Source: Mariniphaga sp. (GTDB lineage: Bacteria; Bacteroidota; Bacteroidia; Bacteroidales; Prolixibacteraceae). From it: a stretch of DNA of 64,000 bases. Positions 9,293-38,745 of the stretch are shown one piece after another. The notes beneath the pieces were generated by a model. It was not told where the DNA came from, did not search any database, and saw only the letters and a program-made list of their open reading frames with translations. Within the stretch, counting starts at the first letter, position 1. The number at the start of each line of letters is the position of its first letter. The DNA is taken from NCBI GenBank assembly GCA_037128295.1, contig JBAXWR010000004.1, positions 8,423-72,422 on the forward strand, in the 5' to 3' direction. Both the position numbers and the translations under genes were made by a program.

Positions 9293-9330
9293 GTTACTGA
9301 ACGGTTACAAAACAATGAATTTGTGGTTAC
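9293..9330 (-). promoter_or_regulatory. Three GTAAC (plus-strand GTTAC) direct repeats at 9293, 9304 and 9326 (spacing 11 and 22 bp)
   Basis: Positions counted directly. The repeats are oriented with the downstream minus-strand phosphoesterase gene, 42-79 bp upstream of its ATG. Confidence 0.5.
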
Positions 9331-9406
9331 TTTTATAGGCGATTCGCTACAGCAAAATGATACCAAATTGAAACAACTTGTTAATCAAACTGTAACACTC
9401 ATGGAT

Positions 9407-9529
9407 TATCTTTGCTTTTAAAATAATTACTCGTTTAGTTTTAGTCTGCTCTGTATTGTATGTAGTGTTTACGTTTACTAGTTAAAGGTTCGGAGAGTTC
9501 GGGACAGAGTATCGTCCCGAACTTTTTTT
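9407..9529 (+). ncRNA. Candidate ~105-nt small RNA (promoter box to intrinsic terminator), no ORF
   Basis: An exact TAnnTTTG box (TATCTTTG, 9407-9414) is preceded by TGTAAC (9391-9396). It is followed about 80 nt later by a 9-bp GC-rich hairpin (9497-9505 / 9514-9522) and a T7 run (9523-9529). Both flanking genes are on the minus strand. Confidence 0.3.
9497..9529. terminator. Hairpin GTTCGGGAC-N8-GTCCCGAAC plus T7 run, abutting the GH1 stop codon
   Basis: Perfect 9-bp stem seen in the sequence. The U-tract is on the plus strand only. It may also stop the convergent GH1 transcript. Confidence 0.6.
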
Positions 9530-10940
9530 ATTTCAGAAAATCCTTCCACCAAAATCCAGAATCTTTAACGATACGCTCCTGATTTTTAGGGTCATTGTAA
9601 ACAATTCCAAACCTTGGACGAAAACCTTCAGCCCACTCGAAATTGTCAATAAAAGTCCAGGCAAAGTACCCTTTTATGTTTGCCCCTTCATTTTTTGCCC
9701 TAAGAATCTGTTGAAGATAACGTTTATAAAAATTGATCCGTTGCACATCGTGAACTTTCCCATTAATCAATTGATCAGGAAAAGCTGCCCCATTTTCGGT
9801 AACAATAATCTCTTTGATCGGATATTTAGAAAACTGCTTAATAATGTGGTAGATACCTTCCGGGTAAACTTCCCAACCCATTTCAGTCATTTCGGTTTGT
9901 TCATCAGGATTTACCTTGTTCGCCCAAATAAAAGGTATTAACGAGGGTTTGCTGATTACCCTGAAATAGTTCTGGATTCCAATAAAATCAAAATCAAACT
10001 GAAGTTTTTCCCGATCTCCGGGTTTGACGTATTTTTCAATCTTTCTAAGAAAGTGGAGTTCTTCATGCGGATATCCCATGCCCAACGAAGGTTCAATAAA
10101 TAAGCGGTTGAGCATCACATCAAGCCTTCTGGACGCAAGCTGATGCCTTTGGTAGTTTTTGTAAGGTTCAGTATACGAACATGAAAAAGTCGTCCCTATA
10201 TGGCTATTTTCGGCATTTTTGCGAATAATCCTTCCACCTTCAGCCTGGCAAAGACAGGCGTGGTGGATAGATGCAAGAAACTTATTGATACTGCTTTGGT
10301 TAGGTGCATGCATGCCAGAAAGATAACCTAAGGTTGTAAAACCGGCGGGTTCGTTGAGGACCATCCAGTGCTTGACCCTATCGCCAAACTTCATCGCACA
10401 CAATTCAGTATATTCCGAAAACCACTCAACGATATCCCTATTCGTCCAACCTCCTCGATCATCAAGTTTCTGAGGCAGGTCCCAATGATAAAGGGTTGCC
10501 CAGGGTTCAATACCCTGCGTTAAACATTCGTCAATTAATCTGTTGTAAAAATCAACCCCTTTATCGTTTACTTTTCCGGTTCCATCGGGCAATAATCTTG
10601 GCCAGGAAAAAGAGAACCTGAAGTTTTTGAAGTTCAGGCTTTTTAGTAGTTTTAAATCACGGGAGTACCGGTTGTAAAAATCAATTGCATCGTTACCATT
10701 GGTCTTATCCTTTACATTGCGAGGTTTGTTGGTGAACCGATCCCATATTGATTCACCTTTCCCGTCCTTGTCCCACGCCCCTTCAATCTGATATGCAGCT
10801 GTGGCCACTCCCCATTTGAAATCATTGCCAAAATCTGATTTTGCAATCTCAGGACCACTAAAACCATTTGCAGAAATCGGATTTACACGCCACATTGCAG
10901 CCAGGGTGGCCATATATTTTAAAAATTCAAGACGAACCAT
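9528..10940 (-). CDS. Glycoside hydrolase family 1 beta-glucosidase, secreted
   Basis: 470 aa. GH1 signatures are present: WGVATAAYQIEG, TLYHWDLPQ, acid/base LNEP and nucleophile VTENG. There is an N-terminal signal-like segment. Confidence 0.9.
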   Translation of the reverse strand: MVRLEFLKYMATLAAMWRVNPISANGFSGPEIAKSDFGNDFKWGVATAAYQIEGAWDKDGKGESIWDRFTNKPRNVKDKTNGNDAIDFYNRYSRDLKLLKSLNFKNFRFSFSWPRLLPDGTGKVNDKGVDFYNRLIDECLTQGIEPWATLYHWDLPQKLDDRGGWTNRDIVEWFSEYTELCAMKFGDRVKHWMVLNEPAGFTTLGYLSGMHAPNQSSINKFLASIHHACLCQAEGGRIIRKNAENSHIGTTFSCSYTEPYKNYQRHQLASRRLDVMLNRLFIEPSLGMGYPHEELHFLRKIEKYVKPGDREKLQFDFDFIGIQNYFRVISKPSLIPFIWANKVNPDEQTEMTEMGWEVYPEGIYHIIKQFSKYPIKEIIVTENGAAFPDQLINGKVHDVQRINFYKRYLQQILRAKNEGANIKGYFAWTFIDNFEWAEGFRPRFGIVYNDPKNQERIVKDSGFWWKDFLK

Positions 10941-11035
10941 TCTCTTATTTTACCATAAATTTTAACGGCTATAAGTATTATTTTAGCCTAACTGGCTGCA
11001 AAGATAGTCAGATATAATCAAAACTTTTTGGCTTA

Positions 11036-11069
11036 ATAAGAGAAAGCCCCGTATTAGACCGGGGCTTTT
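11036..11069. terminator. Hairpin AAGCCCCG-N8-CGGGGCTT downstream of the phosphatase gene
   Basis: 8-bp stem at 11044-11051 / 11060-11067 with T-rich flanks on both strands. Confidence 0.55.
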
Positions 11070-11148
11070 ATTTGAGGCTGATTTGTCTTGGATGATCGTT
11101 ACTAGCGGATCATTTTAATTGATAAAGGCAAATTAAGAAGTTTTAAGA

Positions 11149-12093: not shown

Positions 12094-12111
12094 TGAAACA
12101 ATTTTAGAAAA

Positions 12112-12158: not shown

Positions 12159-12176
12159 TGGCGTAAAATTATCTTA

Positions 12177-17616: not shown

Positions 17617-17797
17617 CTTCTTTTTATTTTTTGAGTTAATGAAGAAATGCTTTTAAAATGTTGCACAATGTTAAGCGGCTTTAAAAAAGCTCGCAATGGT
17701 TATTATGCAGTGATAGGCATAGCTATTTTCACTATACCCGGATTAAATAATGTAAGTTGTTGTCTATTAGTTGATTTGTTATTCTATTTTTCAGGGT

Positions 17798-17835
17798 GTA
17801 ACAGAAATGTCACATTTATTTGTTCTTTATGTAAC
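17798..17835 (+). promoter_or_regulatory. GTAAC / GTCAC / GTAAC direct repeats at 17798, 17809 and 17831 (spacing 11 and 22 bp)
   Basis: Positions counted directly. They lie 67-104 bp upstream of the response-regulator ATG (17902) and upstream of an exact -7 box. Confidence 0.45.
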
Positions 17836-17868
17836 GGAGTCTTTCCTACAAAATCGGATGAATTGAAA

Positions 17869-20861: not shown

Positions 20862-20930
20862 AGAAATAATCTATGCGTCCTTATCAGTTATAAACCTTAA
20901 TAATTTAGAGGTCTGTTCAACAGATTCTTC

Positions 20931-20958
20931 TGTAATCGGTATGACTTAATTCTGTAAT
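20931..20958 (+). promoter_or_regulatory. TTCTGTAATCG direct repeat (TGTAAT at 20931 and 20953; 22-bp spacing)
   Basis: Two identical 11-mers counted directly, 72-99 bp upstream of the ATG at 21030. Confidence 0.4.
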
Positions 20959-21029
20959 CGTTTTGTCTTGTTTTGATAAAGTTATGTTAAACAAATGGTT
21001 ATGTAGAATTAACATGTACCCCACATTAT

Positions 21030-23651: not shown

Positions 23652-23816
23652 TTAATTATGATTTTATCATTTGAGAATTTTAGTTTTAACCTTCCATTTG
23701 TTTTAGCTTAGTTCCAGAAGTCTCCGTCTATTCCACCATTTCCCCCGAATCTCAATGCCCTTTTCCCATTTGGCCTAATCAGCTACAAATAGGATCAGAA
23801 CGGGGTATTAAATCAT

Positions 23817-23877: not shown

Positions 23878-23903
23878 GTTAAAAACATCTGAAACTTCAT
23901 AAT

Positions 23904-25064: not shown

Positions 25065-25069
25065 ATATC

Positions 25070-25864
25070 ATGCAGAAATTGAATAACATAAAAGCAGTCA
25101 TCTTTGACTGGGCCGGAACAATAATCGACTATGGATGTATGGCGCCTACCCAGGTATTCGTTCAGGTTTATAAATCAAAAGGAGTTTTTCTAAGTAATGA
25201 AGAGGCTCGGGGACCAATGGGATTGGCAAAGAAGGATCATATTCGGGAATTGATGCAGTTGGGCTCCATTCAAAAACAATGGATGATTAGATTCAGGCGA
25301 TACCCAACTGAAGCCGACATCGAATCAATATACGCTGAACTGGAGCCTGTTCTTTCAAATATCGTTAAAAACTATACCGCTCCGATCCAGGGTGCTATTG
25401 AACTCATCAACTTGCTTAAATCTCAGGGAATAAAAGTAGGTACTACGACAGGATATGTTGCTGAAATGATGGACAATATATTACCGATTACCACAGCATT
25501 GGGCTTGTTGCCAGACGCCGTTGTGAATTCATCAGAAGTCTCATCAGGAAGGCCTTATCCCTGGATGATCTACCGTAACTGCGAAAAGATGAATGTTTTC
25601 CCATTGAGTAAAATGGTTAAAATCGGTGATACAGTTGCCGATATCCAGGAAGGTGTAAATGCGGGGATGTGGACAATTGGGTTAACAAAATCGGGAAACG
25701 AACTTGGATTATCAATTGCTGAAACTCAAAAGGCAGATCCTGTTTGGCTTCAGGAAAAAATCGCTATTGCCGAACAGAAGTTGCTGGATGCAGGTGCTGA
25801 TTATGTGGCCGATGGGGTTTGGGATTGCTTACCTATCCTTTATGAAATTGACAATCTGATCTAA
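25070..25864 (+). CDS. phnX: Phosphonoacetaldehyde hydrolase (phosphonatase)
   Basis: 264 aa. It has the HAD motif I with the PhnX-specific context (AVIFDWAGTIIDYGCMAP), then GTTTGY, GRPYPWM and KIGDTVADIQEG, closely paralleling characterised Bacillus PhnX. Confidence 0.92.
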   Translation: MQKLNNIKAVIFDWAGTIIDYGCMAPTQVFVQVYKSKGVFLSNEEARGPMGLAKKDHIRELMQLGSIQKQWMIRFRRYPTEADIESIYAELEPVLSNIVKNYTAPIQGAIELINLLKSQGIKVGTTTGYVAEMMDNILPITTALGLLPDAVVNSSEVSSGRPYPWMIYRNCEKMNVFPLSKMVKIGDTVADIQEGVNAGMWTIGLTKSGNELGLSIAETQKADPVWLQEKIAIAEQKLLDAGADYVADGVWDCLPILYEIDNLI

Positions 25865-25892
25865 ATCAGGAATTCTAAATAATACTTTAAGA

Positions 25893-27227
25893 ATGACAAA
25901 AGCAATTTCTCCTGCCATGAGAAAATGGCGTATTCAAATATTTGCAGTCACATGGCTGGCATATTTCGGGATGTATTTTTGCCGCAAGAATTTCAGCGTT
26001 GTTATGCCCGTGATGAGTCGGGAGTTAGGTACCTCAAAGGAGGAATTTGCGTTTGTAATAACCATTTACAGTATCATGTATATGTTGGGTCAGTTTCTGA
26101 GTGGCTATCTGAGCGACCGGAACGGTCCACGGCTTATTGTTGGGATTGGCCTATTGATTGCAGTCATTTCAAATCTCCTGATGGGCTGGATGGGAACTAT
26201 GGGTTCTTTCGTTTTTTTAATGGGATTGAATGGATTTGGACAATCTACGGGTTGGTCAGGACTTGTCAAAAACCTGACACCCTGGTTCAAAAAGAAGGAA
26301 CGCGGCGTGATGATGTCATTCTGGTCAACCTGTTATGTAATTGGAGGAGTAGCCGCAACTGCATTTGCTACTTATTGGCTCACCAATCAGCAATTCCTTT
26401 CAGAATATTCGTGGAAAAGGGCATTCCTTGCTCCGGCAGTTCTTTTATTGGTTATTTCAATCTTTTACATCGTGTTTGACCGGAATAATCCAACGGATGT
26501 AGGATTGGAGACATTTGAAAAAAACGGGATCACAAAAAAAGGTAAGAGAAAGGATAAAGAGGCTCAGATGGCTGTATTAAAAAATGGCGCTGTCTGGATT
26601 GCTGCAGCCATGTACTTCTTTTTAAAATTTACCCGTTATGCATTTCTTTTCTGGCTCCCCCTGTACCTTTCGGAGGCACTTTTCTATTCCGACCAGCAGG
26701 CAGGATATACCTCAATGGCTTATGAAGCATTCGGGTTTCTGGGAGTCCTGGCGGCAGGTTTTGCTTCCGATTATTTATTTAAAGCACGCCGGTTTCCCAT
26801 CAGTTCGATAATGCTTTTTGGATTGGCCATCGTTTTGTTTTTGCAGCCTTATCTAAGTCCATTGGGAAATGTTCCCACTATTATTTCGATCGGGCTTATT
26901 GGGTTTTTCACTTATGGTCCAGACTCGCTAATGTCGGGTGCTGCTGCGATGGATATGGGAAAAAACCATGGTGCAGCTTTGTCTGCAGGTTTGATCAATG
27001 GTGTAGGTTCTGCAGGTCAATTGTTGTCGCCCTTTGCCGTTGCATATGTTTCCCAAAAATATGGATGGAACGCATTGTTTGAGGTATTCGTCATAGTAGC
27101 CTTAATTGCAGCTTTCCTGTTAATCTTTAAATGGAATTATGGAACTGAAAATCAATCTGATGAATCACCAGAATTATCCTCACACCCTGATGAGGAATAT
27201 GTAGAACTGGGTCTGACAACCAAGTAA
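25893..27227 (+). CDS. MFS transporter of the organophosphate:Pi antiporter (GlpT/UhpC) type; candidate 2-AEP permease
   Basis: 444 aa with 12 predicted TM helices and the OPA-type motif (GYLSDRNGPRLIV). It is embedded between phnX and phnW. Confidence 0.75.
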   Translation: MTKAISPAMRKWRIQIFAVTWLAYFGMYFCRKNFSVVMPVMSRELGTSKEEFAFVITIYSIMYMLGQFLSGYLSDRNGPRLIVGIGLLIAVISNLLMGWMGTMGSFVFLMGLNGFGQSTGWSGLVKNLTPWFKKKERGVMMSFWSTCYVIGGVAATAFATYWLTNQQFLSEYSWKRAFLAPAVLLLVISIFYIVFDRNNPTDVGLETFEKNGITKKGKRKDKEAQMAVLKNGAVWIAAAMYFFLKFTRYAFLFWLPLYLSEALFYSDQQAGYTSMAYEAFGFLGVLAAGFASDYLFKARRFPISSIMLFGLAIVLFLQPYLSPLGNVPTIISIGLIGFFTYGPDSLMSGAAAMDMGKNHGAALSAGLINGVGSAGQLLSPFAVAYVSQKYGWNALFEVFVIVALIAAFLLIFKWNYGTENQSDESPELSSHPDEEYVELGLTTK

Positions 27228-27252
27228 TAAATAAAATAAAATTTCATAGAAT

Positions 27253-28356
27253 ATGGACAATAAACTGTTTACTCCAGGCCCTTTAAATACAAAACGATCG
27301 GTGAAGAAAGCCATGCTTCACGATATGGGGTCGCGAGACAAAGAATTTTTGGAGGTTGTAGAAAAAATCCGCTGTGAACTGCTCGAAATTGCAGGTGTGA
27401 GCCGTGATGAGGGGTACGATTCGGTTTTGATGCAAGGATCCGGAACATTTGGAGTGGAATCTGTCATTTCAACAGTTATTCCAGAATATGGCCATTTACT
27501 GTTGATTTCAAATGGTGCATACGGTGACCGGATCGGAAATATGACCCATGTTTACGAGATCAAAACGACAACACTAAATTATAAGGAAAATGTAGTACCA
27601 TCTTATCTCGATGTGGAAGATGCGCTGAAAAAAGATGATTCAATTACCCATGTGGCTTTGGTACATTGTGAAACCACCACTGGCATTTTCAACGACATCG
27701 AAAATGTAGGATATATAGCTCGAAAATACAATAAACAGTTTATTGTTGATGCAATGAGCAGTTTTGGAGCAGTTCCCATTGATTTAAAGGGAATTGGCAT
27801 TGATTTTTTAATATCTTCATCCAATAAATGTATTGAAGGAGTACCTGGGTTTTCTTTTGTCATCTTTAAAACCAGCTCACTTATTAGTTGTAAGGGCAGT
27901 GCCAGAACCGTCTCGCTTGATCTTTACAATCAATGGATGTATATGAAGAATAGTAATCAATTCCGGTTTACTCCCCCAATTCAGTCCATTCTGGCATTCA
28001 ATCAGGCCCTAGAGGAGCTAAAACTTGAAGGTGGTGTCCGGAAACGATCGGAACGCTATCAACAGAATTACAACAGTTTAATCGAAGGAACCGAAGCACT
28101 TGGCTTAACAACTTATCTTGCTAAAAAGGATCAGGGATACATCATCACCTCTTTTCTGTTTCCAAAACACCCGAATTTCGATTTTACCTTATTTTACGAA
28201 AAATTACACGGACGGGGACAAGTCATCTATCAGGGAAAATTGTCGGATACAGATTGCTTCCGCATCGGCAATATTGGCCAGCTTTATCTGGAAGATATTG
28301 ATAGACTGATTGATGCAATACAAGAAGTGCTACTTGAAATGGGGGTCCCGGTATAA
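27253..28356 (+). CDS. phnW: 2-aminoethylphosphonate--pyruvate transaminase
   Basis: 367 aa class-V aminotransferase fold (LFTPGPLNT, SSNKCIEGVPG with the PLP lysine). Clustering with phnX agrees. Confidence 0.88.
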   Translation: MDNKLFTPGPLNTKRSVKKAMLHDMGSRDKEFLEVVEKIRCELLEIAGVSRDEGYDSVLMQGSGTFGVESVISTVIPEYGHLLLISNGAYGDRIGNMTHVYEIKTTTLNYKENVVPSYLDVEDALKKDDSITHVALVHCETTTGIFNDIENVGYIARKYNKQFIVDAMSSFGAVPIDLKGIGIDFLISSSNKCIEGVPGFSFVIFKTSSLISCKGSARTVSLDLYNQWMYMKNSNQFRFTPPIQSILAFNQALEELKLEGGVRKRSERYQQNYNSLIEGTEALGLTTYLAKKDQGYIITSFLFPKHPNFDFTLFYEKLHGRGQVIYQGKLSDTDCFRIGNIGQLYLEDIDRLIDAIQEVLLEMGVPV

Positions 28357-28378
28357 ACCAAATAATAATTCATCAAAC

Positions 28379-28406
28379 TGTAACCTCAGGTTCACAGAAT
28401 TGTAAT
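28379..28406 (+). promoter_or_regulatory. TGTAAC / TTCAC / TGTAAT repeats (28380, 28391, 28402; spacing 11 and 11 bp)
   Basis: Positions counted directly. They lie 58-85 bp upstream of the ATG at 28464. A -7-like GACATTTG follows at 28417-28424. Confidence 0.4.
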
Positions 28407-28463
28407 AACATTCCTTGACATTTGCCAACTGAAAATATAACATACTTGATTAATTAGTAAAAA

Positions 28464-28973
28464 ATGAAAATCAAAGTTTTAATAATAATATTGTATTTGG
28501 TAGGTGGTAAAAGTTTCGCCCAGAATCTGAATAATGTCCAGTATCCTCATATGCAGAAACCATCGGCACATAAGGAAATCAAGCTACCCAATATATTGGG
28601 ATATACCACATTGAAGTGCGATTTTCACATGCACCAATTGCTACTTGAAAAAGGGCTGATCAATGGGGTTGAAGTTTTCAATGAACAGGAGTACTATCCC
28701 ATTGTTCTCGATTGGTGCCTCAATCGAAATATGGCCGTGATCAGCAATTCTGATATTCACGATGTCACAGCTAATAGGAAGAACAAAGCGTTGTATGAGA
28801 TCAGCAATGTTTCAGCCATTCCATTTGATGTAGAAACCTCAAAAGGGGACAAATTATTTATTCCAGCAGATTCCTCAATAATCATGCCTCTTGACTCGTT
28901 CAACTATAAAGGACTGAAAATCAGGAATCTTTTTACGGGTTCAAAATCAAATCTAAAAGTGAACTTACTTTGA
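28464..28973 (+). CDS. PHP-domain phosphoesterase-like protein, apparently internally deleted (possible pseudogene)
   Basis: 169 aa. It has a signal peptide, then LKCDFHMH (PHP metal motif 1) joined directly to a late-domain segment (GLINGVEVFNEQEYYP...NSDIHD). Full-length PHP esterases of this type are roughly twice as long. Confidence 0.4.
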   Translation: MKIKVLIIILYLVGGKSFAQNLNNVQYPHMQKPSAHKEIKLPNILGYTTLKCDFHMHQLLLEKGLINGVEVFNEQEYYPIVLDWCLNRNMAVISNSDIHDVTANRKNKALYEISNVSAIPFDVETSKGDKLFIPADSSIIMPLDSFNYKGLKIRNLFTGSKSNLKVNLL

Positions 28974-28986
28974 TAAATAATTTGTA

Positions 28987-30354
28987 ATGTCAATAAATCC
29001 AGACATATTGGTCACCGAAGGTGATGTAAATTTCTCCGATGAGAGAAGGAGATGGGATCAAGATATAACAGATCCTTTGACCAGAAAGATCCTGGACGAT
29101 GATGCCCGATATTTTCTGCACCAATCGTTGTCGACCCCTTGCCTTGATGTTCTTGAAAAATGCAAAGGAAGTGGGATGATAACGTTATCCGGAAGATATT
29201 TACTTGATTTTCACGGAAATAATGTTCATCAACTGGGTTTTGGGAATGACTTTGTAATTGACCGAATTAAGGAACAAATGGAATCGCTCCCCTTCTCGCC
29301 CCGAAGGTACACCAATCAACCGGCAGTCGAGCTTGCAGAAAAACTGGCAAGTCTGTTGCCTGGTGACCTGAACCGGTGTTTGTTTGCCCCCGGTGGCACC
29401 TCCGCAGTTGGGATGGCTTTGAAGCTGGCGAGGTTGGTTTCTGGGAAATATAAGGTAATATCTCTTTACGATTCTTTTCATGGTGCCTCGCTTGATGCCA
29501 TTTCAGTAGGTGGTGAAGCTGCATTTCGGCAGTATATGGGTCCATTAATGCCTGGTGTTGTCTCCATTCCGCCCCCAACAACCTATCGGGGAATTTTTGG
29601 CCACAGCGAAGCCGATCAGATCAAATATGCCGATTATCTTGAATATGTCATTGAAAAAGAAGGAGATATTGGTGCTTTTATTGCCGAAACGGTGCGGAAC
29701 ACAGATGTACAGATCCCATCAAAAGCTTATTGGCAAAGGGTTAGGGAAATTTGCACCAAACATGGGGTCATACTTATCCTCGATGAAATCCCGATTGCCC
29801 TTGGACGAACCGGCAAAATGTTCGCATTCGAAAACTTCGGTATCGAACCTGACATCCTTTGCCTTGGGAAAGGCCTGGGTGGAGGAATAATACCTTTTGC
29901 AGCAATTGTTACAAGGGACAGCTACAACGTTGCACAGGATGTCTCACTTGGACATTACACACATGAGAAGAATCCACTTGGAAGCGTTGCAGGTCTGGCT
30001 ACAATAACTTATATAGAAGATCACAAATTACTTGAAAAAGTGGCTGAAAATGGATCGTATATGCTTGACAGATTGTATCGGTTAAAAAAACAGTTCCCAT
30101 TAATTGGCGATATACGTGGTTTGGGTTTTCTTTGGGGAATAGAACTGGTTAAAGATCAGTTAACCAAAGAGAAGGCCACAGAAGAAGCAGAAAAGGTTAT
30201 GTACAATTGTATGCGCAATGGGTTAAGCTTTAAGGTTTCGCAGGGAAATGTCCTTCAGCTTTCGCCGGCCCTGACCATTAGCCGCGATGAATTGCAAACA
30301 GCCTTATCCATACTGATGGTCGTATTTGACAAATTGTCCGAACATCAAATTTGA
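28987..30354 (+). CDS. Class-III (fold type I) PLP enzyme; PbfA-like candidate (R)-1-hydroxy-2-aminoethylphosphonate ammonia-lyase, or an aminotransferase
   Basis: 455 aa with class-III aminotransferase motifs (GGTSAVGMALKLAR, LDEIPIALGRTGKMFAFE, CLGKGLGGG). The assignment to PbfA rests on genomic context only. Confidence 0.55.
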   Translation: MSINPDILVTEGDVNFSDERRRWDQDITDPLTRKILDDDARYFLHQSLSTPCLDVLEKCKGSGMITLSGRYLLDFHGNNVHQLGFGNDFVIDRIKEQMESLPFSPRRYTNQPAVELAEKLASLLPGDLNRCLFAPGGTSAVGMALKLARLVSGKYKVISLYDSFHGASLDAISVGGEAAFRQYMGPLMPGVVSIPPPTTYRGIFGHSEADQIKYADYLEYVIEKEGDIGAFIAETVRNTDVQIPSKAYWQRVREICTKHGVILILDEIPIALGRTGKMFAFENFGIEPDILCLGKGLGGGIIPFAAIVTRDSYNVAQDVSLGHYTHEKNPLGSVAGLATITYIEDHKLLEKVAENGSYMLDRLYRLKKQFPLIGDIRGLGFLWGIELVKDQLTKEKATEEAEKVMYNCMRNGLSFKVSQGNVLQLSPALTISRDELQTALSILMVVFDKLSEHQI

Positions 30355-30423
30355 ATCCCTATGTATAATACTAATATAAATACCTAATAATTAATTACAT
30401 ACAAATCATTAAATTCCAATCAC

Positions 30424-30963
30424 ATGTTAATAAACACACATATTATAATTCTGATATTCCTTCTGTTTTCTGGAAGGACTTTTTCGCAGGATGCTTTGGC
30501 AATGTCAGATTCTGGAGATGCCAAAAGCAATGGTTCTTTAACTTCGGGTTTGCCAGTTTTTGAATTCAGGGTATATGCCAATAACAATGATCTCGATGCC
30601 ATCACCAAAGACATGGCAGGTGAGCATATATTGGGTGAGTTGGCTTCCAGAAAATTGTACTTGCTTGAATCAAAATACACGTTCGAAGTGCCGACCGTAC
30701 CGGGCAACCCTCAAACAAGAACAATGGTGCGAAAACCCGTCATTTACGATGCAGTGAAAAAAGTTGAACGTTACTTCAAAAAATCTGTCAAAAAAGGAGA
30801 GGTTCCACTTGAGGCAGCGTCAGAAGAATTCAACAAAGTTTTGGATGTTGCAATCAATGTACTTACCGCCGATACCAGGAACTTCGAAAAAACGATCAGC
30901 AAAACTGAAGATATGGTATCCTTAATCAACCTGTTGACAAAAAGAGTAAACCTCGTGTTATAG
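30424..30963 (+). CDS. Secreted hypothetical protein
   Basis: 179 aa with a signal peptide (ILIFLLFSGRTFSQ). I recognise no motif. Confidence 0.5.
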   Translation: MLINTHIIILIFLLFSGRTFSQDALAMSDSGDAKSNGSLTSGLPVFEFRVYANNNDLDAITKDMAGEHILGELASRKLYLLESKYTFEVPTVPGNPQTRTMVRKPVIYDAVKKVERYFKKSVKKGEVPLEAASEEFNKVLDVAINVLTADTRNFEKTISKTEDMVSLINLLTKRVNLVL

Positions 30964-31006
30964 TCCATAAGAATCAAAAATTAAATTATTGATTTATTGA
31001 TATTTA

Positions 31007-31022
31007 CAGTATAATTATACTG
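31007..31022. promoter_or_regulatory. Perfect 16-bp palindrome CAGTATAATTATACTG upstream of susC-like gene
   Basis: Verified self-complementary by hand. It lies 59 bp upstream of the ATG at 31081 and is preceded by a TTATTGA direct repeat. Confidence 0.35.
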
Positions 31023-31080
31023 CAATATGCCTAAGTTGTGTCAAAAAAAACAAGTATGTATAATTTCTAATTCTTTTAAA

Positions 31081-34000
31081 ATGCAAAGAACTATTATTTT
31101 ATCAATTCTGGTTATGCTGTTTGGAACTTCACTTTATGCCCAAAAAGCAAAAATTGAAGGAACAGTTAAAATCGGCAATGGGGAAACGTTGCCGGGTGCA
31201 ACCGTTCTCCTGAAAGGCACCACAACCGGTGCAATGACCACTGGAGATGGGAAATTCACCCTTATGGCCGAACCCAAGGACATCATTGTCGTTTCTTACA
31301 TTGGATTTGAATCCAAAGAGGTTGCGGTTGGCAATCAAAAAGTTATTGTTATTACCCTTGAGGAGGCAAAAGAGCAGATAAAGGAAGTAATTGTTACGGC
31401 TTTAGGTATCGAAAAACAAAAAAGCACAATTGGATTTGCCGTTCAGGGTGTGAAAGGTAGTGAGATGGTCAAAGCCAGGGAACCCAATGCTATCAATTCC
31501 CTGACAGGGAAAGTGGCAGGATTAACGGTTGGCGCATCCTCCGAAATACTTGGGTCCCCAACTGTTCTGCTTCGCGGATATGCCCCGCTTTATGTTGTTG
31601 ATGGTGTTCCGGTGCAAACCGATACCTGGAATATCAATCCGGACGATATCGAAAGCTACACCATTCTGAAAGGGCCGAGCGCGGCAGCCTTATACGGTTC
31701 AAGAGGACAATATGGTGCTATCCAGATTACTACCAAACGGGGTACTGGCGACAAACGCGGATTTGTGGTTGATTTTAATTCAAGCACCATGGTCGAAAGT
31801 GGTTTTCTGGCTATTCCTAAAGTTCAGGATGAATATGGCCCAGGCGACCATGGAATATACGCATTTGCTGATGGGAAAGGGGGCGGTTTAAACGATGGTG
31901 ATTATGATGTTTGGGGGCCAAAGTTTGATGGGCAATTGATCCCGCAATATGATGGCCTATACACACCAGGAACTTCTTATACCACAACTTTCGCAAATGG
32001 TTCGACCTATAAAGGAAATATTAAACCAACACCCTATATTGCACGGGGTAAAGACAACCTGAAACGTTTTCTTGAGCCAGGCCTTTTATCCAACAACAGC
32101 GTTTCCCTATCGGCAAGTGGCGACAAATACGATCTCCGGTTTTCTGCTTCGCATAGCTACCAGAATGGTATCGTGCCAAATACTTCGCTCAATATCACCA
32201 ACTTTAACCTAACTGGAGGTTACAACATTTCGAAGAAGCTTCGTGTTAGTGCAAATATGGCTTTTAGCCGTCAATACACTCCCAATGTTCCGGACGTCAC
32301 CTATGGACCAAACAGTATTATATACAACATTATAGCCTGGGGTGGGGCTGATTGGAATATTGCCGATATGCGTAACTACTGGCAACCCGGGAAAGAGGGT
32401 GTTCAATCAATCTATGCTGAATATCAACGTTACCACAATCCCTATTTTATGTCATATGAATGGCTGCGGGGTCACTATAAAAGCGACCTAACAGGGAATG
32501 CTGCCATATCGTACAAAGTCAACAATTACCTGAGTTTGCAGGCCCGTACCGCCATTTCAACCTACGACTTGTTCCTGTCTGAAAAACTTCCTTTCTCTGC
32601 CCACCCTTATGGGCGTGAAGCAGGTGAAGGCGATTACCGGGAAGACAAGCGCAACTTATTCGAGAACAATACCGATATTCTTTTATCATACGACCGTTAT
32701 GTCACTCCCAAGATTAGTTTACACGCAACTGCCGGGGGAAATATCCGTTCATATAATTTCAGGAGCAGCTACTCATCGACTGACTATTTGAACGTTCCCG
32801 GATGGTATAACCTGAGCAACTCTAAAAATCCGGTAAAATCGTACAATTACAATGCCCCAATGCAGGTATTAAGCGCCTATGCAACCGCCGACCTTACTTA
32901 CAATGATTTCCTGACATTGTCGTTAACAGGCCGTGCCGATGAAAACTCAACATTGCCTGTTGGCAACAATACTTATTTTTATCCTTCAGTTTCTACAAGT
33001 ATCGAGCTTTCGAAATTAGTGACCATCCCTCACGTTAAAACATGGAAAGTTAGGGGTTCGTATGCCAATGTTGGAAGTGCGCTCACTTCCTCAACAATCG
33101 GATCAACCGACGAAGTTCTCGGATCTACGGTTGTAGGGTATGGAAGCAGTTACAGATCGCCCTATGATGGACCAACCTATAAAAATTCATCTTCTTATGG
33201 CATTAACCTGATCCAGGGAAAACCAGCCGCTACCTATACCAATGCCATTTCAAATCCAAACCTGAAACCAAGTTCAAGTTCGGCATGGGAAGTCGGAACG
33301 GATGTTGGTCTGTTTGAAAATAGGCTCATGTTCGACGCAACTTATTTTTCGAGCATCGATGGCCCACAAATCTTCTCGTTGCCAATTTCGGGGGCGACCG
33401 GATATTCATCGGCACTCGTGAATGGGATCAAAGTTCAGCGGAAAGGGATCGAAATTAGTGTTGCAGGCTCGCCAATACGCAATGCCAAAGGCTTTAGCTG
33501 GGACATTTCGGCAAACTATTCGACCAATCAACAATACCTGAAAGAAATTTATCCTGGCGTTGAAAAACTCAATATCTATTTGAAAGTTGGTGACCGCATG
33601 GATAAAATGTACGGTACGGACTTTGTCAGGACTTCTGACGGGACAATTATAAACGATGCCAGCGGCCGACCAATCAAAAACTCGGTTTCTCAATTCCTTG
33701 GAAATGCAAATTCAAATTGGGTCGGAGCCATTAACAACACGTTGTCGTACAAAAATTTCAGTTTGAAATTTCAGTTTGATGGTCGTTTTGGCGGTTCCAT
33801 TATTGACTATGTTGAAAAGAAAACCTACCAGGGAGGACGACACATCAACACCGTACTTGGTGATATGGGAGCTGCCAGGTTAAACGACACCAAAGGCATT
33901 AAATCGTATGTTGGTCAAGGGGTAGTTGTTAGCAATGGACAGGCAATCGAATACGATTCTGACGGAAATGTGACAAACTACAGCAAACTTCAGTTTGCTC

Positions 34001-34305
34001 CAAATACAACTGTGACTTATCTACAGGATTATATCAGCCGTTACTATGGGACCGATGTGGCAGACCGTATCAGCCGTACTTTTGTCAAATTACGCGAAGT
34101 CGTTCTGACCTACAACTTTCCTCAGGCATTCCTCAGCAAGACTCTAATCAAACAAGCAAGTATCTCTTTCGTTGGCCGTAACCTCTTGTATTTTGCTGAA
34201 AGAAGCGATATCGATATCGAACAATATGCAAATACGAGTGGATCCTCCGGGCTTCAAACGCCAACAACGCGCCGCTATGGGTTTAACCTGAATATCAGCT
34301 TCTAA
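31081..34305 (+). CDS. SusC/RagA-family TonB-linked outer membrane transporter
   Basis: The ATG at 31081 gives a signal peptide (MQRTIILSILVMLFGTSLYAQ). It has a CarbopepD_reg domain (IEGTVKIGNGETLPGATVLLKG), a plug, and a 22-strand-type barrel ending YGFNLNISF. A SusD-like gene follows. Confidence 0.9.
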   Translation: MQRTIILSILVMLFGTSLYAQKAKIEGTVKIGNGETLPGATVLLKGTTTGAMTTGDGKFTLMAEPKDIIVVSYIGFESKEVAVGNQKVIVITLEEAKEQIKEVIVTALGIEKQKSTIGFAVQGVKGSEMVKAREPNAINSLTGKVAGLTVGASSEILGSPTVLLRGYAPLYVVDGVPVQTDTWNINPDDIESYTILKGPSAAALYGSRGQYGAIQITTKRGTGDKRGFVVDFNSSTMVESGFLAIPKVQDEYGPGDHGIYAFADGKGGGLNDGDYDVWGPKFDGQLIPQYDGLYTPGTSYTTTFANGSTYKGNIKPTPYIARGKDNLKRFLEPGLLSNNSVSLSASGDKYDLRFSASHSYQNGIVPNTSLNITNFNLTGGYNISKKLRVSANMAFSRQYTPNVPDVTYGPNSIIYNIIAWGGADWNIADMRNYWQPGKEGVQSIYAEYQRYHNPYFMSYEWLRGHYKSDLTGNAAISYKVNNYLSLQARTAISTYDLFLSEKLPFSAHPYGREAGEGDYREDKRNLFENNTDILLSYDRYVTPKISLHATAGGNIRSYNFRSSYSSTDYLNVPGWYNLSNSKNPVKSYNYNAPMQVLSAYATADLTYNDFLTLSLTGRADENSTLPVGNNTYFYPSVSTSIELSKLVTIPHVKTWKVRGSYANVGSALTSSTIGSTDEVLGSTVVGYGSSYRSPYDGPTYKNSSSYGINLIQGKPAATYTNAISNPNLKPSSSSAWEVGTDVGLFENRLMFDATYFSSIDGPQIFSLPISGATGYSSALVNGIKVQRKGIEISVAGSPIRNAKGFSWDISANYSTNQQYLKEIYPGVEKLNIYLKVGDRMDKMYGTDFVRTSDGTIINDASGRPIKNSVSQFLGNANSNWVGAINNTLSYKNFSLKFQFDGRFGGSIIDYVEKKTYQGGRHINTVLGDMGAARLNDTKGIKSYVGQGVVVSNGQAIEYDSDGNVTNYSKLQFAPNTTVTYLQDYISRYYGTDVADRISRTFVKLREVVLTYNFPQAFLSKTLIKQASISFVGRNLLYFAERSDIDIEQYANTSGSSGLQTPTTRRYGFNLNISF

Positions 34306-34342
34306 TCTTAGGTATAATTTACAAAATTTAAATTACACAGTA

Positions 34343-35833
34343 ATGAAAAATATATTTCTCTTTGTGGTCGTGCTATTCGTGGCATTATCATCATGTCAAA
34401 AATTCTCTGATCTCGAAAAAGATCCAAATCGTCCTGGCAATGTGCCCCCTTCATTGGTCTTTACAAGTGTACTTTACAGCACTTATTATGCCCCCTGGAG
34501 CGATGTACAACGCTGGAACCAGTTCTATTGCAGCAATTATGCCTATTATGCGGAACAGAAATACGACTGGACCACAACGAGCTTCAATTATTCGCAATTG
34601 AAGAATGTCAACCAAATGATTGCTGAAGCAAAACGCATTGGGTTGGCCGATACCAATCCATATTCGGCGATTGGGAAGTTCTACAAAGCATTTTTCTTTG
34701 TGGATATGAGTATGAGACTGGGCGATGTGCCCTTAACCGAGGCATTGAAGAGTTTGGATAACACCATGCCAAAGTACGACACTCAAAAAGCGGTATTCCA
34801 ACAAGTGCTGACATGGCTCGAAGAATCAAATACTGATCTTCAGTCACTGATCAACAGCGGGGACCAAACGCTTACCGGAGATTTCATGCTCAACAACGAC
34901 TTGAAAAAATGGCAAAAAGTAGTCAATTCATACAAATTGCGGGTACTGATTGCTTTGAGCAAAAAAGAATCGGACACAGATCTGAACATCAAAACGTTGT
35001 TTGCAAATGTGGTAAATAATCCGACTAAATACCCTGTAATGACTTCACTTGACGACAATCTGAAATTCACCTACAACAATTCAACCGACAAATATCCGCT
35101 TAATCAGGATAATTACGGTCAGACTGCTACACGTAACAATATGTCGGCTACTTATCTGAATACCCTTGCTTTGTTAAAGGATCCACGCACTTTCATTGTT
35201 GCCGACCCTGCCCCTGCCAAAATTAGAGCTGGATTAACTGCTTCTGATTTTGGTGCTTATGTTGGTGCAAGTTCCGGTGAAAGCCTTGACGATATGTCAA
35301 CTAAAATGTTGAATGGGGAATATTCGTCAATCAGCAAAAGCAAATACTACAGTTCATACGTTGGTGAACCTTGCATCCAAATCGGTTATTCCGAATTGTG
35401 TTTCAATATTGCAGAAGCGATCACTCGGGGTTGGTTATCGGGTAATGCCGAAAATTATTATATCAATGGGATCAAAGCATCCTGGGCATTCCATGGTGTT
35501 GCATCAGTTGACTTAAAATGGGACGCATACTATTCCCAGGCGACTGTTAAGCTGAACGGCACTGTATCAGAGGCACTAAAGCAAATACTGACCCAAAAGT
35601 ACCTTGCTTTTTTCCAGAATTCGGGATGGGAAGCATATAACAACTATCGGCGCACCGGTGTTCCGGCCTTCCTTACCGGAACAGGAACAGCCAATAGCGG
35701 GAGAATTGCTAAAAGGTGGCAGTACCCAAGTCCCGAAAGGACAACAAATTCCGTCAATTACAAAGCTTCTCTGGTCAGTCAATTTGGAACCGAAACTGAC
35801 GATATCAATGCAGATATCTGGATACTTAAATGA
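34343..35833 (+). CDS. SusD/RagB-family nutrient-binding outer membrane lipoprotein
   Basis: 496 aa with a lipobox (VALSSC) and a TPR-like helical core. It lies immediately downstream of susC-like. Confidence 0.85.
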   Translation: MKNIFLFVVVLFVALSSCQKFSDLEKDPNRPGNVPPSLVFTSVLYSTYYAPWSDVQRWNQFYCSNYAYYAEQKYDWTTTSFNYSQLKNVNQMIAEAKRIGLADTNPYSAIGKFYKAFFFVDMSMRLGDVPLTEALKSLDNTMPKYDTQKAVFQQVLTWLEESNTDLQSLINSGDQTLTGDFMLNNDLKKWQKVVNSYKLRVLIALSKKESDTDLNIKTLFANVVNNPTKYPVMTSLDDNLKFTYNNSTDKYPLNQDNYGQTATRNNMSATYLNTLALLKDPRTFIVADPAPAKIRAGLTASDFGAYVGASSGESLDDMSTKMLNGEYSSISKSKYYSSYVGEPCIQIGYSELCFNIAEAITRGWLSGNAENYYINGIKASWAFHGVASVDLKWDAYYSQATVKLNGTVSEALKQILTQKYLAFFQNSGWEAYNNYRRTGVPAFLTGTGTANSGRIAKRWQYPSPERTTNSVNYKASLVSQFGTETDDINADIWILK

Positions 35834-35869
35834 GGTTGAATTTGGGTGAAGTTCAATCTGTTAAATTGG

Positions 35870-35906
35870 AAAACCATTACAGTTTTAGGCTGTAATGGTT
35901 TTATTT
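35870..35906 (+). terminator. Intrinsic terminator AAAACCATTACAG-N7-CTGTAATGGTTTT
   Basis: 13-bp perfect stem (35870-35882 / 35890-35902) followed by ATTT. Confidence 0.75.
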
Positions 35907-35930
35907 ACAATATCTTTCAATTATTTAACT

Positions 35931-36269
35931 ATGAGCAATTTTAATGTACATAAACTTGGAGAAGGGCGATATTATGTAGCACTGCTTTCCAATGAAGGTT
36001 ACGTAATTCTTCGCGGAAATGAATGTTCTGATTTAACAAAAATCAACGAGTCAATAGAAACCATACGGGCAAGTTCAAGCGATCTGTCAAAATACGAAAA
36101 AAAGATATCCAGCGATGGGAAGTTCTATTTTAAACTTCTTGGACCGGACGGGACATTGTTGGCCAGAAGTAAAATTTTTGAAACTGAAGAAGAACGATCT
36201 GTAGGTATTACCTGGGTTAGGCAAAATACTCTTTTTGCAACTGTCCAAAGCTGGAATATCAATCTATAA
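35931..36269 (+). CDS. YegP-family (tandem DUF1508) protein
   Basis: The ATG at 35931 starts the protein. There are two repeats of the Y-(F/V)-x-L-x-x-x-N-G-x-V-(I/L) type (GRYYVALLSNEGYVILRG; GKFYFKLLGPDGTLLARS). Confidence 0.7.
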   Translation: MSNFNVHKLGEGRYYVALLSNEGYVILRGNECSDLTKINESIETIRASSSDLSKYEKKISSDGKFYFKLLGPDGTLLARSKIFETEEERSVGITWVRQNTLFATVQSWNINL

Positions 36270-36306
36270 TTTTTTATTAATCAAATTATTACAATACGCA
36301 TTATTC

Positions 36307-36633
36307 ATGGGAACTTTTATTGTAACAAAAAATGCAGATGGGCACTATTTCATCAAACTTAAAGGGAAGAATGGGAAAGTGATGCTGAATAGCCTGAGAT
36401 ATCTTTCCAAATCGGTCTGTAAAAGTGAAATAGAGACCATTCGTATAACTGCAACAGATAATCTAAAATACGAATATAGAAAAACTTTTGATGGCAAATT
36501 CTATTTCAGGCTTAAATCTGCACTAGGTGAAGTGTTGGGGCACAGTAAATTATTTGATTCGGCAGAATTGCGAGACTCCGAAATAGAAATGGTTAGGAAA
36601 ATTGCACCTGTTGCCATGGTAAGTGTCTTTTAA
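36307..36633 (+). CDS. YegP-family (tandem DUF1508) protein, paralog
   Basis: The ATG at 36307 starts the protein. Repeats: GHYFIKLKGKNGKVMLNS and GKFYFRLKSALGEVLGHS. Confidence 0.7.
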   Translation: MGTFIVTKNADGHYFIKLKGKNGKVMLNSLRYLSKSVCKSEIETIRITATDNLKYEYRKTFDGKFYFRLKSALGEVLGHSKLFDSAELRDSEIEMVRKIAPVAMVSVF

Positions 36634-36657: not shown

Positions 36658-36697
36658 AAACCGGATAAGGCATAACTGCCCTTCCGGTTTTTTATTT
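36658..36697. terminator. Bidirectional hairpin AAACCGGA...TCCGGTTT plus T-run between convergent genes
   Basis: 8-bp outer stem (36658-36665 / 36683-36690) with further inner pairing. TTTTTTATTTT follows on the plus strand. Confidence 0.6.
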
Positions 36698-36714
36698 TCA
36701 TAACTTTTTTAAAT

Positions 36715-37560
36715 TTACTTGTTCGGGGCTTTTTCTTTGCCGCTTTTTTTGTGTTCTGGCTTGGGTTCTTTATGTCCTATCTGTTCCTGGTCTATATCCT
36801 TGATATCTTGATTTATATCACTAATATCATCGTCATTTTTTGAAAAAAGTGATATTATTAAGTTGCGATATTCCCTATAAAAATCGGGTTGATCGATTTC
36901 CACCAATAAAACAAACTGATCAATTTTATTGAAAATTAGTTTTTTTGATTGTTTGTTAATTTCTTTTATTTTATTGGCCAATTTTTCTTTTTCTTCAACC
37001 TCAACCTGATATTGGACCTTGGCCTCAATAAACCGAAGTAACGCCTCTTCAAGGTTTTTTATCATTTCAGGATTTAATCCGAATCTTTTTTCGAACTTGT
37101 TGATATTTTTTAAATTATCGGGATTTAGCGATGCCTTTATTTTGTTGACAAAGGTGAGTGCATATCCTCCAAACTTATTGGCAATCAGCCAGTTTTTTTT
37201 CGCAATTTTTATTAATTCATCATCAGTACAATTTTGGATGTACTCAAGATTAAGGTGATACAACCTTTGTTGAAGCTTCATTTTCATTTTGTCATTGGCA
37301 AAAGTCTGCATAATCCGGACAATAGTCAAGACCTTTTCTTCCAATTGCTTTCTTCTGATGTTCTTTTCAACGTCAAAAGTTGACAAATCCTTACCAAATA
37401 AAACAAACAGTTCGTCCAATTTTACCTGGTTGGAAACAAGTTGATCGTAAACATGTTGAAATTTGGTATTGTTATGCCAAACTATTGAATATTTGGATAA
37501 TACACCAATTATTTGTGCATTTCTATCCAGTTTTGTTGAAAAATCACTAATTCTTTCCAT
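36715..37560 (-). CDS. Hypothetical coiled-coil protein with acidic/lysine-rich tail
   Basis: 281 aa with no recognisable motif. It lies 60 nt downstream of the PiT gene on the same strand. Confidence 0.5.
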   Translation of the reverse strand: MERISDFSTKLDRNAQIIGVLSKYSIVWHNNTKFQHVYDQLVSNQVKLDELFVLFGKDLSTFDVEKNIRRKQLEEKVLTIVRIMQTFANDKMKMKLQQRLYHLNLEYIQNCTDDELIKIAKKNWLIANKFGGYALTFVNKIKASLNPDNLKNINKFEKRFGLNPEMIKNLEEALLRFIEAKVQYQVEVEEKEKLANKIKEINKQSKKLIFNKIDQFVLLVEIDQPDFYREYRNLIISLFSKNDDDISDINQDIKDIDQEQIGHKEPKPEHKKSGKEKAPNK

Positions 37561-37620
37561 ATTGATTTAATTTTTAGTTTGATGCACCTATTTTAGCAAT
37601 TATTTAGAATTAAAAGTCAT

Positions 37621-38655
37621 TTAGAACATTTTTATAATCCAAAAGATTATAGCTGCCATTGCCATTGAAACAGGAATTGTTAGGATCCAGGCGTACAACA
37701 GGTTGACTGTAACACCCCATCGGACAGCGGAAACCCTTTTTGTAAGGCCAACTCCCATAATTGCACCGGTTATGGTGTGGGTTGTACTTACTGGTATTCC
37801 CAAAGCCTCTGTTCCAAATAACAACATTGCACCAGCACCTTCGGCTGCAACACCTTCAAAAGGAGAAAGCTTGGTGATTTTTGAGCCCATTGTCCGAACG
37901 ATCCTCCATCCTCCGATTAAGGTTCCGGCTGAAATTGCAGTGTAACATCCATAAACGATCCACAATGGAATGGTATGGATTTTACCTTCCACAAAAGTGA
38001 TTTGGGCCCAATGTGGAATGGTTGAAGGATCGGCAGTCTTAAAAAAAACCAGCAAAGATGCAGAGATGATCCCCATGACTTTTTGCGCATCGTTACCTCC
38101 ATGCCCGAGACTAAAAAGTGCGGAAGAAAACAACTGCCCAATTTTGAACCACCGCTGCAACCGAAATGGGTTGAAATTCCTGAAAATCCATAACATTGCT
38201 ATGGAAATGAAATAGGAAAGAATCATACCGATCAATGGGGCAAGAAATATAAACGATGCGATCTTGATGATTTTATCGGAATGGACGACACCCCAGCCGG
38301 CATAGGCAACCGCAGCGCCGGCAAATCCACCGACCAGTGTATGCGAAGAGCTTGATGGAATTCCCAGGTACCATGTTATCAGGTTCCAAATGATTGCGGC
38401 AATCACACCAGCCAGGATCACTTGAAGGTTAATTGATCCTGTGTCAACGACCTTTGCAATCGTATCGACGATATGAAGTTCAAATATTGCATAGGCTGCG
38501 AAGTTAAAAAAAGCTGCCCAGATAACAGCCTGCAATGGAGTTAATACTTTGGTTGATACAACAGTTGCAATCGAATTGGCAGCATCATGAAAACCATTAA
38601 TGAAATCGAAAATAAATGCCAACACAACAATAGAGATCAATAGTGTAAAATCCAT
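37621..38655 (-). CDS. pit: Inorganic phosphate transporter, PiT family
   Basis: 344 aa polytopic protein with the duplicated PiT signature (GFHDAANSIATVVST and GHGGNDAQKVMGI). Confidence 0.9.
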   Translation of the reverse strand: MDFTLLISIVVLAFIFDFINGFHDAANSIATVVSTKVLTPLQAVIWAAFFNFAAYAIFELHIVDTIAKVVDTGSINLQVILAGVIAAIIWNLITWYLGIPSSSSHTLVGGFAGAAVAYAGWGVVHSDKIIKIASFIFLAPLIGMILSYFISIAMLWIFRNFNPFRLQRWFKIGQLFSSALFSLGHGGNDAQKVMGIISASLLVFFKTADPSTIPHWAQITFVEGKIHTIPLWIVYGCYTAISAGTLIGGWRIVRTMGSKITKLSPFEGVAAEGAGAMLLFGTEALGIPVSTTHTITGAIMGVGLTKRVSAVRWGVTVNLLYAWILTIPVSMAMAAIIFWIIKMF

Positions 38656-38718
38656 AGTTTAAATCTTTAGTGTATTACCTTAAAGCAATTAAAAATAATG
38701 AATTATCTCCTAGCGTGT

Positions 38719-38745
38719 GTTACAGAAAGGTTACATTACGGTTAC
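38719..38745 (-). promoter_or_regulatory. Three GTAAC (plus-strand GTTAC) direct repeats at 38719, 38730 and 38741 (exact 11-bp spacing)
   Basis: The plus strand reads GTTACagaaagGTTACattacgGTTAC. The repeats are oriented with the PiT gene, 64-90 bp upstream of its ATG (38655). Confidence 0.55.

Follow-up and report, generated by a model that had tools for sequence, protein, structure and literature searches.

What protein reads the short, evenly spaced repeats that stand in front of six genes or operons in a stretch of Mariniphaga sp. DNA (Prolixibacteraceae, Bacteroidota; contig JBAXWR010000004.1), and what are these genes for? The stretch analysed, hereafter the window, is 64,000 nucleotides long, has 40% G+C and encodes SusC/D-like proteins. 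In each of the six promoter regions a GTAAC-like core recurs on one strand at multiples of 11 bp. Pho boxes are 11-nt direct-repeat units, bound head-to-tail (PMC4415409). We propose, with a probability of roughly 0.85, that these arrays are Pho boxes, the operators of the phosphorylated OmpR-family regulator PhoB, and we infer binding, activation and dependence on inorganic phosphate (Pi). A preliminary description of this DNA had suggested PhoB-type Pho boxes and a phosphate-starvation regulon, a suggestion now supported by the gene content of the operons, by arrays before pst and phoBR in relatives and by conservation upstream of plcP.

Strict GTAAC or GTTAC occurs 92 times in the window, counting both strands. 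Same-strand pairs up to 60 bp apart fall at 11 bp (5), 22 bp (4), 33 bp (3), 44 bp (1) and 55 bp (1), and at other distances in only 3 cases; the 12 pairs at 11, 22 or 33 bp compare with 0.13 expected from 500 dinucleotide-preserving shuffles, in which the maximum was 2. All 18 unit coordinates given in the preliminary description were found in place, a minus-strand coordinate being the first base of GTTAC on the plus strand, and each G-to-G distance is exactly 11 or 22 bp, as claimed there. In the letters it assigned to the units, position 28391 should read GGTTCAC, with the in-phase core TTCAC instead of TGTCAC, and several units labelled TGTAAC have A, C or G before GTAAC. In an 11-bp register and in gene orientation, the unit consensus is nTGTAAC[A/C]nnn, with degenerate units occupying the 22-bp gaps. 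The spacers vary from unit to unit, indicating that the arrays are not simple tandem duplications. All six point in the same direction as the downstream gene, again as described before, and lie 31-98 bp upstream of the start codons. Like Pho boxes, the arrays consist of at least two direct repeats of an 11-bp unit at exact helical phasing.

To score the arrays, a position weight matrix (PWM) was trained on 53 units from arrays of relatives only, the score of a site being that of its best three of four phased units. With this matrix the six reported sites are the top six of the window (scores in Table 1), and background begins below 13.5. Arrays of comparable score are absent before every other window gene, in line with the earlier statement that no phased copies were seen before dcw, thyA-folA, ppa, fadD or the hyfB-like genes. 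In shuffled intergenic DNA, taken on one strand, only 0.05 sites scoring 13.8 or more are expected per set, and 0.03 at the score of the hybrid-kinase site. The pbfA site and the hybrid-kinase site are the weakest of the six; the latter has two CTGTAATCG copies (GTAAT cores) 22 bp apart and no adjacent pair. We place high confidence in the PiT, phn and plcP arrays and moderate confidence in those of the response regulator and pbfA; the hybrid-kinase array ranks lowest. A further 11-bp GTAAC pair, AAGTAACAACA ATGTAACTATC at 45243-45264 (+), lies within a sulfatase-family open reading frame (ORF; 43773-45731, -) with no gene downstream in the orientation of the pair, and could be a chance occurrence or an internal or antisense site. 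A scan of the window at the Rfam gathering thresholds gave no match.

Judged by their predicted functions, the genes behind the arrays are devoted to acquiring or sparing phosphorus, as expected of Pho-box targets. The set comprises a PiT phosphate transporter, the phosphonate enzymes PhnX, PhnW and PbfA, a major facilitator superfamily (MFS) transporter, a PlcP-like phosphoesterase with its glycosyltransferase, a SusC/D-like pair, a two-component pair and a hybrid kinase.

The plcP array was followed across the phylum. It is kept in the relatives L124-L129, L204 and L208, and we extended the comparison to 80 loci from 80 Bacteroidota species, collected through an alignment of PlcP homologues, by scanning 300 bp upstream of the gene. 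The strict definition of an array, with at least three units, gave too few cases over these loci, and spacing histograms were used instead. Upstream of plcP, 52 of the 80 loci have a gene-strand [GT]TAA[CT] pair with a spacing of exactly 11 bp, these positive loci spanning 18 of 30 name groups, whereas other spacings occur at 0-8 loci, save 22 bp (19) and 33 bp (11), and the opposite strand gives 5. In the rest of the 1.4 Mb around these loci, the excess at 11 bp is no greater than the plcP sites account for. The core itself differs by clade: Prolixibacteraceae and Cytophagales have GTAAC or GTAAT, whereas Pedobacter and Chitinophagaceae have TTAAC.

If the arrays are bound by PhoB, they should also precede the core phosphate genes, and the preliminary description had predicted them before pstSCAB-phoU and phoBR. 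This was found in all six family-level relatives considered (L129, L204, L207, L208, L209 and L211), of which L204, L207, L208 and L209 were reached through homologues of the L129 regulator and L211 through a kinase search. Arrays of 3-6 units stand before a porinO/P-pstS-pstC-pstA-pstB-phoU operon and before an OmpR-family regulator in L129 (Prolixibacteraceae), before porinO/P-pstSCAB-phoU in L208, before a porin-like gene followed by pstSCAB-phoU-phoB-phoR in L204, before pstS2...phoU-phoB-phoR in L207 and L209, and in L211 before phoBR and, divergently, PhoU_div-PiT. L204 spans 20.7 kb, and only two of its 11-bp pairs fall outside three array promoters. The regulators score 276 (L129), 324 (L204) and 321 bits (L211) against NCBIfam NF053854 'PhoB, Bacteroidetes' (cut-off 270); with NF053855 'PhoR' (cut-off 500), the kinase of L204 reaches 657 bits. 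The position of the arrays before predicted core Pho genes in these six relatives is what autoregulation by PhoB would produce.

Among the 80 plcP loci, pst or phoB genes lie near plcP only in L129, so the link to pst is one at family level, together with three metagenomic matches. A metagenome scan for three phased TGTAAC copies returned at least 120 stretches, a mixed set with many plain tandem repeats. Among the matches listed, 34 arrays were usable (followed within 260 bp by an ORF of 130 aa or more), ten of which were scanned against Pfam, and a PstS-type protein was found downstream in 3 of these 34. As a rough figure, PstS-type genes make up at most about 0.1% of genes, which puts the probability of 3 in 34 by chance at about 1e-5. 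The three contigs have 31, 45 and 57% G+C, and these arrays suggest that the core serves pstS well beyond Prolixibacteraceae. In the marine contig of 31% G+C (L434:8505-8565), TATGTAACAAAAATGTAACATTTATGTAACATATG stands 60 bp upstream of PstS. This PstS belongs to a 90% cluster of 153 members, Tara Oceans sequences included, which points to a TGTAAC-type Pho box in an abundant low-GC marine organism.

The arrays may also be set against the core promoter. Of 16 arrays taken from the window and its relatives, 8 have a TTTG that begins 18-19 nt past the G of the proximal core, at exactly 19 in seven of them, where the chance of TTTG is about 1% per position. Six of these arrays match TAnnTTTG, which we take to be the Bacteroidota -7 element, at 7 of 8 positions with an offset of 14-15. 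On that assumption, the proximal unit would sit in the place of the -33 element, much as in E. coli, where the Pho box stands in for the -35. In the window, the pbfA array has TTTG 19 nt past its proximal core and the hybrid-kinase array 18 nt past it.

Several observations weigh against this interpretation. The window contains no phoB, phoR or pst, so the connection to PhoB is made through relatives. Exact TTTG at the +19 register is missing from the phn and PiT arrays of the window, and likewise from its plcP and response-regulator arrays; plcP promoters have TTGG, TTAG or TTGT at that place. No strict pair was found at 28 of the 80 plcP loci, Maribacter, Tenacibaculum and Pontibacter among them, and the 80 species are not independent, 21 of them being Pedobacter. 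The response-regulator array is only partly conserved in relatives, as GAAAC-N6-GTCAC/T ... GTAAT/GTATT. Finally, the window-wide shuffle maximum has a mean of 12.2 and a 95th percentile of 17.6, close to the scores of the hybrid-kinase and pbfA sites, which therefore reach significance only if intergenic DNA alone is searched.

Table 1 Predicted Pho-box arrays of the window and the genes that follow them, in order of position
Feature	Position	Strand	Units, family or score
Glyco_trans_1_3 glycosyltransferase	7374-8384	-	
PlcP-like metallophosphoesterase	8400-9251	-	
Pho-box array, plcP	9289..9332	-	AAGTAACCACA, AATTCATTGTT (degenerate), TTGTAACCGTT, CAGTAACTGGT; PWM 22.2
Array, response regulator	17796..17839	+	GTGTAACAGAA ATGTCACATTT (degenerate unit) ATGTAACGGAG; PWM 19.3
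LuxR/NarL-type response regulator	17896-18549	+	
TPR-containing histidine kinase	18570-20861	+	
Array, hybrid kinase	20930..20962	+	CTGTAATCGGT, ATGACTTAATT, CTGTAATCGTT; PWM 15.0
Hybrid histidine kinase	21030..23651	+	PAS, HisKA, HATPase, receiver; no DNA-binding domain
Pho-box array, phn	23816..23881	+	Six phased positions; PWM 23.0
2-Aminoethylphosphonate catabolism operon	23904..28356	+	Pfam, NCBIfam
Saccharopine-dehydrogenase-like protein	23904-25064	+	Pfam
PhnX phosphonatase	25070-25864	+	NCBIfam TIGR01422, 317 bits (cut-off 220)
GlpT/PgtP-like MFS transporter (organophosphate)	25893-27227	+	Pfam
PhnW transaminase	27253-28356	+	NCBIfam NF010006, 475 bits (cut-off 296)
Weaker array, pbfA string	28378..28410	+	CTGTAACCTCA GGTTCACAGAA TTGTAATAACA; PWM 13.8
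Co-directional gene string with pbfA	28464..36633	+	169-aa and 179-aa proteins without assigned family and two DUF1508 proteins included
PbfA	28987-30354	+	NCBIfam NF049939, 721 bits (cut-off 525)
SusC-like TonB-dependent receptor	31027-34305	+	
SusD-like lipoprotein	34343-35833	+	
Co-directional 281-aa protein after PiT	36715-37560	-	No family assigned
PiT phosphate transporter	37621-38655	-	PF01384
Pho-box array, PiT	38715..38747	-	Three consecutive 11-bp units ACGTAACCGTA ATGTAACCTTT CTGTAACACAC; PWM 26.2, window maximum

The individual loci of the window differ in how their arrays are built (Table 1). The proximal core of the PiT array lies 68 bp from the start codon of a protein whose identical sequence is present on a contig of the metagenome-assembled genome (MAG) GCA_964395475.1. 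Upstream of PiT there is a gene-free stretch of 746 bp in which a PhoU_div remnant was sought and none was found; between 38800 and 39400 it contains pieces of ORFs in shifted frames that show a C..WC...C.G.C pattern and may be what is left of a SPASM-type gene. In the phn array, units 1, 2, 4 and 6 are (T/G)GTAAC, units 3 (AATTGACCCCA) and 5 (GATCATCACTT) are degenerate, and 31 bp lie between the proximal core and the ATG at 23904. The pbfA array opens a string that runs in the order 169-aa protein, PbfA, 179-aa protein, SusC-like, SusD-like and two DUF1508 proteins.

For the plcP-like gene, the ATG at 9251 (MDNKRNVEVVVISDVHLG) is most likely the start, rather than the TTG at 9278, which places the proximal core 46 bp away instead of about 20. 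The encoded protein is nearest to proteins named by NCBI from Mariniphaga, Prolixibacteraceae and Marinilabiliales MAGs, and with the adjacent glycosyltransferase it forms a predicted phospholipid-to-glycolipid remodelling pair. Beyond the direct array, at 9368-9411 (+) and roughly 120 bp before plcP, is an inverted set of three phased units, TTGAAACAACT TGTTAATCAAA CTGTAACACTC; it has a PWM score of 13.4 and its units also occur in L124. Beside the plcP-glycosyltransferase genes, at 5034-7191 (+), are an Acyltransf_2 gene and a GNAT-type (Acetyltransf_5) gene that look like a pair for aminolipid (glycine or ornithine lipid) synthesis, and no Pho-box array precedes them. Two further features were seen at Pedobacter loci. 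In L131-L194, the space between plcP and the TTAAC array, some 60-170 bp before the gene, contains a short conserved ORF (ending ...FFFSPYDL...DDDD/EEDD). Some 2.9 kb past the plcP start, for example at L147:13112, a conserved TTTAACyTTTTTTAACAA (10-bp spacing) is followed by TTG and TAnnTTTG; it stands upstream of a 245-aa ORF, CoaX-like by its N-terminus, for which a link to phosphorus is not apparent.

If these arrays are PhoB operators, a simple course of events can be proposed. By analogy with solved PhoB-DNA complexes, one winged-helix domain would sit on each 11-bp unit (nTGTAAC[A/C]nnn), and PhoB dimers and oligomers would occupy the units of successive turns head-to-tail. Among solved structures the nearest is RegX3, followed by other OmpR-family regulators, and these were of no help in predicting base contacts. 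A fixed register between the proximal unit and a TTTG core-promoter element would bring PhoB to the -33 place, from where it could recruit RNA polymerase. Low phosphate, sensed by PhoR, PstSCAB and PhoU, would then switch on PiT together with phnX, phnW and their transporter, pbfA with the SusC/D-like pair for import across the outer membrane, and plcP with its glycosyltransferase, by which phospholipids would be replaced. It would probably also switch on a second-tier two-component system and the hybrid kinase.

Could a different protein occupy the same sites? The alternative that survives best, though we consider it improbable, is another OmpR-family regulator with a PhoB-like half-site, such as a second phosphate- or envelope-responsive one. 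A grammar of 10-11-bp direct repeats and A/C-rich half-sites is common to the family, and other members are encoded near plcP at some loci. However, the arrays precede phoB/phoR and the Pst operons, the classical autoregulated Pho core, and the gene set is purely phosphorus-related, both of which argue for PhoB itself.

Less probable again is that the arrays are operators of the local LuxR/NarL-type regulator, which would then control a private, autoregulated phosphorus regulon. The preliminary description had named it as a possible binder. Its own promoter bears an array, its gene lies inside the cluster of array-bearing operons, and direct repeats can be used by some NarL-family proteins. 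Against this, close orthologues of its partner kinase (at least 56% identity) form about 52 clusters, beyond which identity falls to 42% and 29%, and the pair is thus limited to a single family, whereas arrays occur upstream of plcP across the phylum and before pst-phoU-phoBR at loci with no LuxR regulator nearby. As judged from the loci compared, the regulator does not co-occur with the sites as a NarL/LuxR operator would lead one to expect. Moreover, the array upstream of the regulator degenerates in relatives, and head-to-tail 11-bp units are a signature of OmpR/PhoB winged-helix proteins (PMC4415409). We do not favour this regulator as the binder; it and the TPR kinase are probable members of the regulon instead.

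A very improbable reading is that the arrays arose by chance or are generic repeats of period 11 with no regulatory role; for the set as a whole it is already contradicted. Arrays of this kind can be common: in viral contigs (IMG/VR), three phased TGTAAC copies were found in at least 120 stretches, and two composition-matched control hexamers in 89 and 83, so period-11 arrays are generically frequent there, and candidate phage Pho boxes were rejected. The hybrid-kinase site is also weak when taken alone. Yet the excess of phased pairs over shuffled sequence, the varying spacers, the agreement in orientation at six of six sites and the retention of arrays before orthologous genes across the phylum are at odds with chance, and repeats of the TRF (Tandem Repeats Finder) type would not follow gene function. 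In the viral contigs, an inverted GTTACA directly precedes many of the TGTAAC arrays, which are located beside tRNA genes or terminators; one array family is related to transposable phages of Bacteroides and Porphyromonas, and another matched only a cyanophage gene. Least probable of all, GTAAC would be the -35-like element of an alternative sigma factor of the extracytoplasmic function (ECF) type, whose -35 elements are often (G)GAAC or GTAAC-like, but such an element is single in a promoter and paired with a conserved -10, whereas 2-6 copies at helical phasing are present here, no CGT-type -10 is shared among the arrays and the window has no ECF sigma gene.

With PhoB as the preferred binder, the two regulatory loci of the window could represent a second tier of the regulon. 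The response-regulator array lies 65-98 bp upstream of its gene. In every genome examined (the window, L210, L211 and L212), the LuxR/TPR pair is divergent from an operon that in the window occupies 11149-17616 and encodes a TonB-dependent receptor, a beta-propeller or beta-helix protein, Big_2, and phosphatases (purple acid phosphatase, His_Phos_2, Metallophos). Given this constant arrangement, the pair more probably regulates that operon locally, under Pho control. In the same genomes the operon has no Pho box of its own, and the shared intergenic region contains strongly conserved blocks, GCATAGnTnTTTTCACTA and CAATGG, which are not Pho boxes and may be the operator of the LuxR-type regulator. 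The hybrid-kinase gene is absent from the relatives fetched. PhoB boxes would here switch on the LuxR-type regulator with its TPR kinase, and the hybrid kinase, such that outer-membrane scavenging of organophosphates would require both phosphate starvation, through PhoB, and a substrate signal, through the TPR kinase. Taken jointly, a second tier of the Prolixibacteraceae Pho regulon and a first sequence-level grammar of Bacteroidota Pho boxes remain a tentative reading, in which the grammar may consist of a [G/T]TAAC core drifting between orders, up to six phased units, and the +19 register to TTTG.

Bacteroidota play a major part in recycling the organic phosphorus of soils, oceans and guts, and to our knowledge their Pho regulons have so far been charted by expression data only. 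No Pho-box sequence for the phylum was found in the literature searched, which did not cover subscription-journal papers and regulon databases. The regulon is of an ordinary kind and the concept is a textbook one; the Pho-box sequence is, as far as we know, new for Bacteroidota. Its value is practical rather than conceptual: the consensus (nTGTAAC[A/C]nnn, or phylum-wide [G/T]TAA[C/T], with an 11-bp period and in gene orientation) could be used to predict Pho regulons in thousands of Bacteroidota genomes and MAGs, with pbfA, SusC/D-like importers and secondary two-component systems as predictable candidate members.

The arrays share much with Pho boxes of other phyla. Those of cyanobacteria, bound by SphR/PhoB, reportedly consist of three tandem PyTTAAPyPy(T/A) octamers with 3-bp spacers (Su et al. 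2007), and triple TTAAC-like units with 11-bp phasing are found in Chitinophagaceae, for example L149 and L161, whereas the cores of the window begin with G instead of T. The PhoP box of B. subtilis has the consensus TT(A/T/C)ACA in repeats of 11-bp period, and the TTAAC(A) upstream of plcP in Pedobacter and Chitinophagaceae is close to this hexamer. B. subtilis PhoP boxes and the Streptomyces PHO-box units (GTTCACC) also have three or more units at this period, and their number and quality vary by promoter, hence 'simple and complex operators' (PMC4415409); they belong to other phyla, with another regulator lineage and type of promoter. With the E. coli Pho box (CTGTCAT-N4-CTGTCAY), the arrays share 11-bp direct repeats of about 7 conserved and 4 variable bases (PMC4415409), head-to-tail order, gene orientation, a place before pst, phoBR and phosphonate genes, and perhaps a setting against the core promoter; the core TGTAAC/TGTCAC is one or two positions from TGTCAT. 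In contrast to E. coli, the core is (T)GTAAC here and TTAAC in other Bacteroidota, the arrays extend to 4-6 phased positions, degenerate fillers included, and the putative partner element is a Bacteroidota-type TTTG and not a sigma-70 -10 hexamer.

The closest counterparts lie within the phylum. In F. johnsoniae, Pi depletion induces PlcP (Fjoh_4577), a glycosyltransferase, SusCD-like 'PusCD' pairs and phoB, with no motif reported (PMC8115612), and the plcP of Dokdonia is induced by phosphorus starvation (PMC4796936). The PhoB of B. fragilis (BF1576) binds a 512-bp pst fragment in which no site was defined; pstSCAB-phoU and a PiT-type permease depend on it, the PiT orthologue BF3715 being 52-fold down in a phoB mutant (PMC3547664). 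The regulators of L129, L204 and L211 pass the NCBIfam model built for this protein.

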